Below, piece by piece: positions 44,461-46,994 of a stretch of DNA of 55,921 bases. The notes under the pieces are model-generated. The model was not told the DNA's origin. It searched no databases and saw only the letters and a list, made by a program, of their open reading frames with translations. Within the stretch, counting starts at the first letter, position 1. Each line of letters begins with the position of its first letter. Location of the stretch: positions 1 through 55,921 of IMG/VR virus record IMGVR_UViG_2541047806_000003; one strand, 5' to 3'. The translations under genes and the position numbers were made by a program. This DNA comes from a virus (lineage: Duplodnaviria; Heunggongvirae; Uroviricota; Caudoviricetes).

Positions 44461-45104
44461 TAACCCATCTCCCCGTTAAGCTCTGCTACCCGGATGTCAT
44501 AAACATCTTTTGCCTTGATTCGATGTTCCGATCCTTCCGGTAGTAATTTCCAGCATTTGCCAAATATTTCACGCAGCTTGTTAGCGTCCTGCGCTTTCGC
44601 TGCTGCATCACAGAAACGTGCTAATACTTCATCAGGATTTGGCGGCGCTTTCTGCTGCTGTGGTTGTTGTTTTGGTGGGTTTTTCTGCTGGCGAGGCTGC
44701 TGGCCTGTCTGCTTAGCGTATGCGTCAGTATCAGGATCTCGCGCATCATCAATGCAGAATAAACCGTTCAAAGCATATTTTCGCGCGTAACTTGATGTCG
44801 CACCTGTTAGCTGGCTTGCGTCCATTCCCTTCTTGCTTTCTTCTTCCCTGGCGTAAGCCGTTACCGCTATTTCGTCTTCACCGTCGCTTAGCGTCGCCGT
44901 AGCTTTCACATAATAGCGATTGCCGATCAGGACAATTTCATCGCTTACAGTCAGCGTAATACTTTGAAGCAGTGGTTTAACCGCCTCTAAAATATCCTCC
45001 GCCGACCTGTAATTATATCCACCAAAATTATTACGCTGATTTTTCGGCGCGTTCAGCGTTTGCTGAATCGTCCATAGCTTTTTATGTAACTCTGTTTTCA
45101 CCAT
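44460..45104 (-). CDS. Erf-family single-strand annealing protein
   Basis: 214 aa; FGGYNYRSAEDILEAVKPLL typical of Erf family; adjacent to ssb. Confidence 0.75.
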   Translation of the reverse strand: MVKTELHKKLWTIQQTLNAPKNQRNNFGGYNYRSAEDILEAVKPLLQSITLTVSDEIVLIGNRYYVKATATLSDGEDEIAVTAYAREEESKKGMDASQLTGATSSYARKYALNGLFCIDDARDPDTDAYAKQTGQQPRQQKNPPKQQPQQQKAPPNPDEVLARFCDAAAKAQDANKLREIFGKCWKLLPEGSEHRIKAKDVYDIRVAELNGEMG

Positions 45105-45219
45105 TTAATCTCCCGTGCTGTTAACACTATGTATAAGGCTTTATTCGCGGCGCTCCACATTTCGGCATCGTGAAGCATTTCCGCTACTGCCAGTTTGAAT
45201 TGAAGCGCCTGAATAACCA
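45097..45219 (-). CDS. Small hypothetical protein between N-like and erf
   Basis: 40 aa, strong SD GGAGGTGA, stop overlaps erf start. Confidence 0.3.
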
Positions 45220-45250
45220 TAATGTCACCTCCGGATGTTTACATTTTGTA

Positions 45251-45541
45251 TTAATGGTAGCGGACTTTATCCAGGGGTTTTTCCCCTAAATGGCGTGGTT
45301 GCGTTGCGTGGTAGTAGCTGCCGCTTTCATTTTCCGTATACCATTTTACTGATCCTTTGCGACGTTCTTTAATGCTATTTGGTTTGCATCTTTCCTCGTT
45401 TGCAAATCGAATAGCTTTATCCACATTGTCTGTTTTATTGATTGCAGGTGATGATTTTCTTTCGTTTTCTCTTTTTATCCTTCTGCGTTCCCTGGCATTC
45501 ATTTTGCTATCACATTTACCATATATAATTGTAACGCTCAT
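45251..45541 (-). CDS. N-like transcription antiterminator (P22 gene 24-like)
   Basis: 96 aa; N-terminus MSVTIIYGK plus Arg-rich motif NARERRRIKRENERK; first gene of leftward operon. Confidence 0.55.
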   Translation of the reverse strand: MSVTIIYGKCDSKMNARERRRIKRENERKSSPAINKTDNVDKAIRFANEERCKPNSIKERRKGSVKWYTENESGSYYHATQPRHLGEKPLDKVRYH

Positions 45542-45597
45542 AATCTGATCTCCGTATATCCTTGATGATACTTAATAAAAAATCATCTTCGTTAATT

Positions 45598-45636
45598 GCC
45601 GCACTTCCAGCGGCTGACCAGATTGTTAATGAGCGG
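45598..45636 (-). promoter_or_regulatory. Candidate nutL (boxA-like CGCTCATTAACAA followed by boxB-like hairpin GCCGC-TGGAAGT-GCGGC)
   Basis: Read on minus strand in leader upstream of N-like gene; boxA resembles rrn/lambda boxA. Confidence 0.35.
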
Positions 45637-45889
45637 CTTAACATCTTTCAACTAATCCCGCAATCATCGCCGTTCCCGGCGTGACCTTGCTCACTCCAAG
45701 CAAGCTGACTCGTCGCCTTGCGTGCGGTTTCGTGGGGGATGTAACGCTTTAAACACCCCATGCGCCTTGTTATCAGTGCCGCTTTCGGTCCCCCATCGGG
45801 GAGTTACTCCACGGTTGACAAGGTGTTAAGCCTGATTTTTAAAGTGCCAGGAAGTTGCTTTTGTTACCTGCGCCCTTCCTTTGACTCGC

Positions 45890-45918
45890 AATATACGCCC
45901 CGTAAAACATCGAGTCAA
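45890..45918 (-). promoter_or_regulatory. Candidate pL promoter (TTGACT-N17-TATATT)
   Basis: Hexamers on minus strand; CCATTTTGTA motif abuts the -35. Confidence 0.3.
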
Positions 45919-46010
45919 TCCATTTTGTATACTTTTTTAAAATATTTTATATGCCATTGATATTTAAATAATAAATAACGTTTCCTGTTTACGTTTTGGT
46001 GTTTTCCAGG

Positions 46011-46035
46011 CAAAGAAAAGCCGCCATTCGGCGGC
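46011..46035 (-). terminator. Terminator after repressor gene
   Basis: Stem GCCGCC/GGCGGC then TTTTCTTTG on minus strand. Confidence 0.55.
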
Positions 46036-46041
46036 TAATGT

Positions 46042-46689
46042 TTATGGCAGGTTTACGATCTTCGCATCAACCACCACGCCTATAATTTTTGATTCTGGAT
46101 TCATAGGGATTGGCGGATACAGCGGATTGAGCGAACGTAAAAGCCTTTGACCTCCATCAATAATCAACTGTTTAAACGTCGGTATCTGCCCTTCCTCAAG
46201 CTGGGCTATAACCAGTTTGCCGTCAATAGCTGGCGCGTGCGGGTCCACAAGTATCATCGTCCCCGCCGGGATGCTCAACCCCTGCGGCGCGTTCATTGAT
46301 TCACCTTTGGCAACCAGCCAGTAACTGTCATCTGAACAAATAACGCTAGTCGTAACGTGTCGTAATGCTGAACGCCTTGCGTCATCCATATTGTTTACTG
46401 TGTCCTTCCAGTCAATAACCGGGTAACTACCTAAATCACGCGGCGGCACGGCCTGAAGTGTATTAGAAACAGAATCATCAATGACCATACCATCATGTGT
46501 AACAGTGAACTGCCGACGACCAAGCTCTCGCATAATCCGCGCAATATCTTCAAGATTTGGCTCGCGGCGACCGTTCAGCCAGTGTGACAGGCCGCCTTTA
46601 GTTATCCCCATGCGATCCGCTAGTGAATCCTGGCTCATGCCCTGCGCCCGCATGAGCTGCTTTGCTAAGTCATACCATTTTGTTTTCAT
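46042..46689 (-). CDS. CI-type prophage repressor (HTH plus S24/LexA-like peptidase)
   Basis: 215 aa; N-terminal HTH (QDSLADRMGITKGGLSHW), C-terminal S24 Ser-Lys region (AKGESMN ... IIGVVVDAK). Confidence 0.85.
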   Translation of the reverse strand: MKTKWYDLAKQLMRAQGMSQDSLADRMGITKGGLSHWLNGRREPNLEDIARIMRELGRRQFTVTHDGMVIDDSVSNTLQAVPPRDLGSYPVIDWKDTVNNMDDARRSALRHVTTSVICSDDSYWLVAKGESMNAPQGLSIPAGTMILVDPHAPAIDGKLVIAQLEEGQIPTFKQLIIDGGQRLLRSLNPLYPPIPMNPESKIIGVVVDAKIVNLP

Positions 46690-46994
46690 GTCGCTACCCT
46701 ATAACCTCAAAAAGTTTGATGCAAGTCACAAAACGTGTATTTTAAGCCTTGATCTTAAAATTCCATTTTGTAAACTTGCAGACAAGGTAAGGCCATACTT
46801 GCAAAGACGCAAGGAAAAAGATAACGGAAGGCACAAAAAGGCACTTACCTTAAGCTCTTTAAAAATCCGGTGTCGCTGCGAAGCGAAAAACAAATATCAC
46901 GCAACGGCGGGATCTGTTGAGCGGTCAGTCACTGCTATCTAATGCTAATGGGATGCCCGCCCGCGCGTTCACTCTAACCATAGGAGAAAACACG
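46690..46994. promoter_or_regulatory. Divergent repressor/early promoter-operator region
   Basis: Intergenic; inverted repeats CTTGC-N6-GCAAG (ACTTGCAAAGACGCAAGG) and CTTGCAGACAAG; CCATTTTGTA motif at 46763. Confidence 0.4.

Follow-up and report, generated by a model that had tools for sequence, protein, structure and literature searches.

We examined the leader of the antiterminator gene gp17 in IMG/VR virus record IMGVR_UViG_2541047806_000003 (positions 1 to 55,921, the whole stretch being referred to as the window), where the minus strand carries a LexA/cI-type repressor gene (46689-46042), a gap of 500 nucleotides (nt) and the 96-amino acid (aa) open reading frame (ORF) gp17 (45541-45251). 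Within this gap we found a GC-rich element of 198 nt, which comparison with relatives showed to be an optional module whose evolution is unlike that of coding sequence, and which we read as self-contained and probably untranslated. We consider it likely, with a probability of about 0.65, that this element functions as a structured RNA of the sense (minus) strand. Because the 901 bases around the locus matched the Escherichia phages mEp010, mEp515, mEp021, and MagusPhagus at 93-99% identity, as well as 35 Escherichia coli chromosomes, the window is assigned on these matches to the mEp021 (mEpimmI) group of prophages.

Leaders of 37 distinct relatives were aligned and fell into two alleles. The long allele contains a boxA-like 17-mer (boxA-1) followed by the 198 nt (45832-45635), after which come a second boxA (boxA-2) and a boxB hairpin; in the short alleles, a purine-rich 5' leader of about 45 nt runs directly into a single boxA and boxB. 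The boundaries of the element were identical in every relative aligned, and boxA-1 occurred only where the element occurred. The long allele was present in 31 of the 35 E. coli prophage copies, in 32 of 42 IMG/VR loci, and in four of seven isolated mEp phages (mEp021, mEp010, mEp515, and MagusPhagus; mEp013, mEp044, and mEp554 are short), such that overall some 75-90% of relatives carry the element and the rest are without it. The short alleles are not simple boxA-to-boxA deletions of the long one, as their 5' leader differs. Long and short alleles are interspersed over the Gp17 tree, two Gp17 proteins were each found, with identical sequence, behind both leaders, and the same element precedes two different alleles of boxB and of the arginine-rich motif (ARM) of Gp17, as well as two different spacers between the nut site and the ribosome-binding site (RBS). 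Since the alleles are distributed in this way, the element appears to have been exchanged repeatedly, to be dispensable for Gp17 function, and not to have coevolved with Gp17. In the mechanism that we favor, it stands outside the antitermination machinery of Gp17.

To assess constraint, diversity was computed on 32 distinct long-type sequences. The element was the least diverse segment of the locus, with a nucleotide diversity (pi) of 0.030 and 12% variable columns, compared with 0.073 (26%) in the repressor gene, 0.090 (40%) in gp17, 0.130 (38%) in the leader just upstream of the element, and 0.146 (46%) in nut; the adjoining noncoding DNA is thus 4-5 times more diverse. Between the window and L046, the most divergent carrier, the element is 94% identical, nut 59%, and gp17 74%, and 8 of the 12 differences within the element sit in one hairpin. 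The equivalent noncoding leader of the short alleles is highly variable, so that fast leader evolution may be regarded as the background at this locus. Judged by these alignments, the element was shown to be under stronger constraint than the flanking genes.

The 356-nt leader folds at -122.5 kcal/mol (z = -4.6; none of 100 shuffles as good), and the element alone at -77.4 kcal/mol (z = -3.9; none of 200 shuffles as good). Folding energy alone cannot choose the strand, because the opposite strand of the element also reaches z = -4.3. A consensus structure was obtained with RNAalifold from 14 variants, and pairs were counted in 20 distinct variants. This consensus contains 58 pairs in ten helices (P1-P10), and 99.7-99.8% of cells pair on the sense strand. 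The long-range helices P1 and P2 close two multibranch subdomains, P3-P6 and P7-P10, and in this model were shown to insulate the element from its flanks. Helix P9 reads CUUGCUU/GAGCAAG in most variants and AUCACUU/GAGUGGU in six, which amounts to three fully compensatory pairs, and a further U-A/U-G alternation in P9 was seen in ten variants. Elsewhere, a U-to-C change at 45739 turns a G-U into a G-C pair and a C-to-U change at 45678 turns a C-G into a U-G pair; together with a change at 45687, these preserve pairing only as sense RNA. The P10 loop alternates between GGAA and GAAA, both of the GNRA type. Nine of the 12 variable stem positions retain their pair, all three breaks are singletons, and 13 further variable positions are unpaired.

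The strand was also compared directly. With the same pair table, 92.1% of antisense cells were paired, four invariant G-U pairs and three one-sided changes becoming A-C mismatches, and the consensus energy was -69.1 for sense versus -64.9 for antisense, both comparisons leaning somewhat to sense because the fold was derived on that strand. On the sense strand the ensemble is well defined (minimum free energy [MFE] -77.4, centroid -75.5), whereas on the antisense strand it is ill-defined (MFE -72.8, centroid -58.3). Taken as a model, the ten-helix fold is plausible in outline and supported for P9, but not proven. Loop-loop and loop-boxA complementarities noticed by eye (P6 loop with boxA, P9 loop with ACUCC, and AGUAAC with GUUAC) were dropped, as each is broken in some variants. 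The idea of a CsrA sponge was likewise dropped: a count by eye over the element came to five GGA motifs, where its base composition would give about four.

An earlier note on this DNA had described a GC-rich segment at 45650-45870 with several inverted repeats, which might encode a small RNA or an antitermination or processing structure. The GC-rich unit is real (GC content 0.53-0.59 over 45600-45800, against 0.25-0.37 at 45850-46000 and 0.29-0.40 at 45500-45650), although its actual extent is 45832-45635 plus a 5' hairpin at 45879-45850. With regard to the repeats, CCCC-ATC-GGGG corresponds to helix P4; the G-run and C-run of CGTGGGGG...CCCCATGCG exist but pair otherwise in the consensus fold, in P6 and P3. 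Conservation of secondary structure in relatives, which the note had named as a check, was found in the retained pairs and the compensatory changes of P9. As for function, the segment behaves like a conserved structured sense RNA, and the specific roles named in the note stay conjectural; the element is dispensable for Gp17 and nut and lies upstream of nut. What the note had not described is that the segment is a sharply bounded indel module, that two boxA-like repeats flank it, and that an annotated gene, gp16, lies inside it.

The element was found at one place per genome, always the gp17 leader, in 31 of 5,426 E. coli genomes, and among 50,697 phage records only in the four long-type ones. 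A search of 72,556 plasmids in distant mode did not find it, a gapped motif scan of species-representative genomes returned only one chance match in a Phyllobacteriaceae coding region, and exact-motif scans of IMG/VR yielded only the same phages and three chance matches in high-GC contigs. A metagenome scan added 11 near-identical copies. Our custom covariance model of the element (R1) detected a single copy in the window, no second or degenerate copy there, and none in short-type loci. The family of Gp17 is narrow (31 clusters down to 60% identity), its most divergent loci have short leaders, and a search for divergent carriers through Gp17 uncovered no copy of the element below 94% identity, which keeps the power of the covariation analysis low. 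The covariance-model search proposed in the earlier note failed to connect the element with a known family: against Rfam 15 (cmscan over 4 kb, then over a 301-nt core with lax filters), matches were at chance level only, the best within 45590-45890 having E = 8.1 and 12-14 bits, far under the gathering thresholds. No tRNA or tmRNA was detected by a dedicated scan, and the element contains no terminator-like hairpin followed by a U tract. A derivation of the element from the region downstream of nutL was considered and rejected, as the local alignment was nonsignificant (83 of 500 shuffles score as well).

One of the relatives, L094 (275-377, a Logan contig of ERR14001007), carries what looks like a natural internal deletion in which the inner 110 nt are lost and 88 nt are left. 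It retains P1, P2, P4, and the 3' part of P10/P7, and the junction lies in an imperfect direct repeat (ACCGAAAGCGGC / ACCGGAAACGGC). This deletion could be real or an assembly artefact.

Between the repressor gene and gp17 (46041-45541), the minus strand begins with the terminator of the repressor gene and a sigma-70 promoter next to an operator-like 16-mer; then come the 5' hairpin, boxA-1, the 198-nt element, the nut site, and the RBS of gp17. Coordinates are collected in table 1.

Table 1. Features of the gp17 leader, in order of transcription (window coordinates)
Feature	Position	Strand	Sequence or motif	Remark
Intrinsic terminator after repressor gene (t1 of mEp021)	46019..46036	minus	AGCCGCC-GAAU-GGCGGCU then UUUUCUUU	U tract
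Operator-like 16-mer	45919..45934	minus	AAGTATACAAAATGGA	Directly adjoins -35 hexamer; repeat family D1; invariant in relatives
Early promoter of gp17 operon (accepted from sequence)	45890..45918	minus	TTGACT-17-TATATT	10/12 consensus matches
5' leader hairpin	45850..45879	minus	GGAAG...CUUCC	In MFE fold; only in long leader allele
boxA-1 (boxA-like 17-mer, candidate)	45831..45847	minus	GCACUUUAAAAAUCAGG	Ends 3 nt ahead of helix P1
GC-rich structured element, 198 nt, ten helices	45635..45832	minus		Indel boundary, fold, diversity, single copy
P1 (9-bp long-range helix)	45832-45824/45643-45635	minus		
P2	45818-45814/45652-45648	minus		
P3	45813-45809/45735-45731	minus		
P4	45802-45798/45793-45789	minus	CCCC-ATC-GGGG	
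P5	45782-45778/45766-45762	minus		Weak
P6	45759-45753/45742-45736	minus		
P7	45727-45723/45662-45658	minus		
P8	45717-45715/45709-45707	minus		
P9	45704-45698/45692-45686	minus		
P10	45685-45677/45672-45663	minus		GNRA loop
gp16 (37-aa ORF, probably noncoding)	45648..45761	minus	MGCLKRYIPHETARKATSQLAWSEQGHAGNGDDCGIS	Annotated in mEp021, mEp010, MagusPhagus
boxA-2 of nut site (nutR1 in mEp021 naming)	45623..45634	minus	GCUCAUUAACAA	Many relatives: GCUCUUUAACAA
boxB hairpin	45598..45614	minus	GCCGC-UGGAAGU-GCGGC	8 nt after boxA-2
gp17 RBS and start codon	GGAG 45553-45550; AUG 45541	minus		Read from sequence

The boxA consensus of gamma-proteobacteria is GYTCTTTAANA (PMC5725501). In the window, boxA-2 (GCTCATTAACA, part of the 17-mer GCUCAUUAACAAUCUGG that starts at 45634) departs from it by one mismatch (T5A), and many relatives have the perfect GCTCTTTAACA. 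The hairpin at 45614-45598 has a GNRA-like, purine-rich loop 3' of boxA and a covarying stem, which across Gp17 alleles takes six forms (GCCGC, GCAC, GCUAC, GCAC, UCGC, and GCUC) while the loop is conserved as U-GAAA-U/A or U-GGAAG-U. boxA-2 is paralogous to boxA copies at 46854 (plus strand) and 38396 (minus strand), both perfect matches to the consensus, and boxA-2 together with boxB aligns significantly with the nutL copy at 46854 (none of 500 shuffles as good). By sequence, boxA-2 and boxB make up the nut site of the gp17 leader; it is an unexceptional nut of the lambda type and has already been published for mEp021. The core of boxA-1 (GCACTTTAAAA) also has one mismatch to the consensus (T3A) and is present in all long alleles; we regard it as a candidate, degenerate, boxA-like sequence. 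As a separate observation, the boxB versions (window 45598-45614; L045, L046, L088, L089, and L090) track the N-terminal ARM of Gp17, whose two main alleles are MSVTIIYGKCDSKMNARERRRIKR and MNAKIIYGNCESKLNARKRRRMKR.

According to PMC11893012 (citing Valencia-Toxqui 2023), Gp17 of mEp021 is an N-like early antiterminator that acts on three nut sites: nutR1 precedes gp17, nutL belongs to the divergent transcript, and nutR2 is located further downstream. For Gp17 and nutR1, binding of the site by the ARM antiterminator and its requirement for reading through terminators are reported there. The same paper reports this phage group to be Nus-factor dependent and mEp021-type phages to equal lambdoid phages in frequency among human faecal isolates. 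The earlier note had therefore been right to call gp17 an N-like gene and to propose a pL-like promoter with boxA and boxB elements in its leader, all of which are present; its nutL-like site is indeed a nut with boxA and boxB, but the name used in PMC11893012 is nutR1.

Upstream of the element, the terminator t1 was recovered by our scan; it is annotated as a terminator in the mEp021 and mEp010 records, and PMC11893012 lists it among those shown experimentally. The hexamers of the gp17 promoter are conserved and its spacer is divergent in the distant relatives L088 and L089 (TTGACA-17-TATAGT / TATATT), and we accept this sequence as the early promoter, with a predicted transcription start at about 45886-45882 (near 45884). 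The stem of the 5' hairpin is kept in L001 and L046, whose loop differs. The 16-mer AAGTATACAAAATGGA, at which the repressor is predicted to bind, belongs to an asymmetric 16-nt motif, TCCATTTTGTATACTT (core CCATTTTGTAWA), with 12 occurrences in the window at up to three mismatches versus 0.85 expected (11162-, 12688+, 12755-, 13146-, 15764+, 38411-, 38479+, 45919+, 46385+, 46762+, 49594-, and 50736+, the sign giving the strand). One exact copy adjoins the gp17 promoter and another lies 14 nt upstream of the nutR2 boxA, and there are two inverted pairs, each about 67 nt apart (12688/12755 and 38411/38479). This motif is probably the repressor operator, and its sites, scattered through the genome, resemble the "stoperators" of mycobacteriophage L5.

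Several side observations concern the surroundings of the leader. Inside the otherwise variable, AT-rich spacer between t1 and the promoter, CCAAAACGTAAAC (45999-45987, minus strand) is invariant in all relatives and may be a second repressor-binding site or the site of another protein. The repressor mRNA may be leaderless, like that of lambda cI (46689-46730, minus strand; sequence reading only): TTGCAT-15-TATAGG ends 8 nt ahead of the repressor ATG at 46689, without a Shine-Dalgarno sequence. A 40-aa ORF directly after gp17 (45098-45220, minus strand), with weak, faint Pfam Lambda_Kil matches in relatives, may be a Kil-like host-killing peptide in the place that kil holds in the lambda left operon. 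In L048 (2208-2675; E. coli E21845/O/A), and in this relative only, an HNH endonuclease gene lies between gp17 and the erf recombinase gene, a further sign of cassette traffic in the early-left operon.

How might the element work? Transcription would begin at the repressor-controlled promoter (45918-45890), and the module would lie within the first ~250 nt of the immediate-early RNA, which would continue through nut into gp17; module RNA would be made only upon infection or induction. It has been reported that boxA prevents Rho termination of long untranslated RNAs, for example, rRNA and CRISPR arrays (PMC7665894, PMC5725501). The compact fold and NusB/NusE recruited at boxA-1 would similarly spare the extra 200 untranslated nt from Rho termination and may also aid the cotranscriptional closing of the long-range helix P1. 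As to what such an RNA does, it might have a role of its own (an "RNA moron"), as an early RNA that is stable, may be trimmed, and binds protein or acts in trans. This role is favored because P1 insulates the domain, nearly all unpaired bases are conserved, and the element behaves like accessory cargo; even so, we would put its chance at somewhat below even.

A number of observations weigh against a functional sense RNA. Forty-eight of the 58 pairs never vary, the covariation is essentially one evolutionary event in one helix, and the number of pairs with a change on both sides is within the range of shuffles (86 of 500). P1/P2 consists of 9 + 3 + 5 base pairs (bp) interrupted by a mismatch and a bulge, which makes it marginal as a substrate for RNase III, and its middle pairs are broken in L046-L048; L094 is without the inner 110 nt. 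boxA-1 is off consensus at position 3, and its first base (G1) differs in L047. All known copies are at least 94% identical, so that recent spread by recombination could explain the low diversity, and pairwise dN/dS (the ratio of nonsynonymous to synonymous change) in gp16 is about 0.1-0.6, not 1. Finally, the transcription start and any processing are predictions, and any target, ligand, or bound protein would be hypothetical.

Several other explanations were considered. The folded domain could be a cis-acting regulator that adjusts how strongly gp17 is expressed or how available the neighboring nut is, either through RNase III/E processing of P1/P2 or through pairing of the 3' strand of P1 (UGUUAA) with UUAACA of boxA-2, nut being exposed only if the domain is correctly closed. 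The position in an antiterminator leader, directly against boxA-2 (0 nt) and 94 nt ahead of the gp17 start, the long-range helix bracketing the domain, and the weakened boxA-2 (T5A) of window-type long leaders, when all short leaders keep the consensus, are consistent with such a role. There is also a precedent, as RNase III processing of the lambda N leader reportedly relieves N-mediated translational repression. However, the element lies upstream of nut, unlike the lambda structure between nut and RBS; an identical element stands before two boxB/Gp17 alleles and two nut-to-RBS spacers; identical Gp17 proteins occur without it; almost all unpaired bases are conserved, beyond the needs of a processing stem; and the alternative hairpin has only six A-U-rich pairs, which are conserved anyway as part of boxA. 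We thus regard cis regulation as rather unlikely. Less probable again, in our opinion, is a functionless insertion or recombination scar, in which a foreign GC-rich fragment or an element like a miniature inverted-repeat transposable element (MITE) entered at boxA, was gained or lost in different phages as their conserved flanks recombined, and looks conserved only because it is young. The element has a 13-nt terminal inverted repeat (GGCTTAACACCTT / AAGATGTTAAGCC, 92% complementary, at 45832-45820 / 45647-45635) and is flanked by 17-nt direct repeats that are boxA paralogs; it is patchy over the Gp17 tree, differs in GC from its flanks, has lost its interior in L094, and is narrowly distributed at 94% identity or above, all of which would suit a scar. 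On the other hand, it occurs once per genome and nowhere outside this locus in the E. coli genomes, phage records, plasmids, and species-representative genomes searched; the flanking repeats agree at only 13 of 17 positions, and their 17 nt exceed the length of a usual target duplication; and the different 5' leader of the short alleles means that they are not simple boxA-boxA deletion products. Moreover, substitutions avoid breaking helices, one helix was rebuilt by compensatory changes, and the much higher diversity of the adjoining noncoding DNA would need repeated recombination exactly at the element edges.

A different possibility is that the conservation of the element reflects a peptide that it encodes, gp16. 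This ORF keeps its full 37 codons in 19 of the 20 element variants, is annotated in three phage records, and shows several synonymous changes at the dN/dS given above. Yet every synonymous change is also structure-neutral, and the numbers of variable states at the three codon positions are 8/4/5 in gp16, without the third-position excess of gp17 (30/24/84) and the repressor (29/20/162). The L046 group swaps LAWSEQG for ITWIEWC while the RNA hairpin is kept, so that replacements are radical (e.g., Q to W, G to C, and S to I), and the stop codon is lost in L040/L070, which extends the ORF to 81 aa. For a Shine-Dalgarno sequence, gp16 has no more than AAGG at a distance of 3 nt, the AUG is buried in helix P6, and conservation is higher still over the 70 nt upstream of gp16 (4 variable states in 69 nt). 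In addition, the NCBI annotation pipeline PGAP leaves the element unannotated in all 31 E. coli genomes carrying it, and tblastn with gp16 found homologs at the same locus only. These sequence features suggest that gp16 is probably not a protein-coding gene, and conservation for its sake seems slightly more improbable to us than a scar. The earlier note had seen no convincing ORF here and had judged a plus-strand ORF (45760-45960) spurious, with which we agree: in many relatives, frameshifts cut the latter down to 19-41 aa, and a 42-aa minus-strand ORF (45644-45516) ranges from 6 to 44 aa, so that on this evidence the annotation is corrected and all three are unlikely to be genes. Finally, the functional molecule could be a plus-strand antisense RNA to the gp17 leader in the lysogen, or the DNA itself as a protein-binding array or single-strand hairpin. 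The plus strand folds well (z = -4.3) and has a weak promoter-like site (45638-45667, 9/12), but such sites are no commoner than in shuffles (5 vs. 3.3 +/- 1.6), the element contains no operator-like motif, the antisense ensemble is ill-defined, and pairing is poorer in antisense (92.1% of cells vs. about 99.7%, a comparison biased to sense). This explanation appears to us highly improbable.

The distribution of the element makes its role directly testable, since natural isogenic pairs exist (long mEp021, mEp010, and mEp515; short mEp013, mEp044, and mEp554), and about four in five sampled mEp021-type copies carry it in one of the textbook systems of gene regulation, the N-type antitermination leaders. 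As a functional RNA, it would represent a new motif in the early regulation of phages and possibly the third natural setting in which boxA protects untranslated RNA; as a mere scar, it would still show boxA sequences acting as recombination joints in phage mosaicism. More speculatively, the element could be the first of a new class of phage "RNA cargo": a boxA-coupled cassette of about 200 nt that opens the immediate-early transcript, is exchanged among near-identical phages, and either acts in trans or binds protein (e.g., against host defence or a competing phage) or serves as a sensor gating nut. We offer this as a tentative idea that is on balance unlikely.

Comparison with known systems places the element as follows. 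Like the lambda nutL/N leader, the gp17 leader combines a repressor-controlled early promoter, a long untranslated region, boxA with a GNRA-type boxB, and a small arginine-rich antiterminator gene. In lambda, however, the RNase III-sensitive hairpin lies between nut and the N RBS, whereas the structured part described here is 5' of boxA-2/boxB, and so does not occupy the position of that hairpin; it comprises 198 nt and ten helices rather than one hairpin, has a second boxA ahead of it, and is optional among close relatives. The lambda hairpin, cleaved by RNase III, is about 20 bp of near-continuous double-stranded RNA; P1/P2, with its interrupted 9 + 3 + 5 bp, may or may not be cut in this way. 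To our knowledge, no structured module upstream of nut and bracketed by two boxA copies has been described for N-type leaders. The nutR1/gp16 region of mEp021 (MH706966, 12024-12224) is the same element at 98.5% identity, and its record annotates only the hypothetical 37-aa gp16. The accessible text of PMC11893012 and two supplementary files contain no "gp16", "sRNA", "small RNA", or "intergenic" and mention no RNA element or leader polymorphism, and the nut sequences are not given in these supplements.

Other likenesses are more distant. In rrn operons, too, a boxA stands ahead of a long-range processing helix, on the side of its 5' strand; boxA-1 ends 3 nt ahead of P1. With the boxA-coupled untranslated RNAs of rrn leaders and spacers and of CRISPR-array leaders (PMC7665894, PMC5725501), the element shares, in layout only, a boxA-like sequence just 5' of an untranslated structured RNA; it differs in the T3A change of boxA-1, in a length of 200 nt instead of kilobases, and in being followed by a second boxA and a boxB for a protein antiterminator. 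MITE and ERIC repeats resemble it in their size of about 200 nt, terminal inverted repeats, transcribed intergenic location, and long hairpin-closed structure. Unlike them, it is a single-copy sequence of one locus in one phage group, has internal helices with compensatory change, and shows neither an exact short target-site duplication nor copies at multiple unrelated sites. The put RNAs of HK022 are factor-independent cis antiterminators of about 70 nt with two stem-loops that replace N and act on their own transcript. Likened by description only, the element is similar to put as a structured RNA just downstream of an early phage promoter, but the phages described here possess a full N-like system, which functions in the absence of the element. 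Belonging to no curated RNA family, the locus is best described as an N-type leader with an extra boxA and a novel structured RNA cassette.

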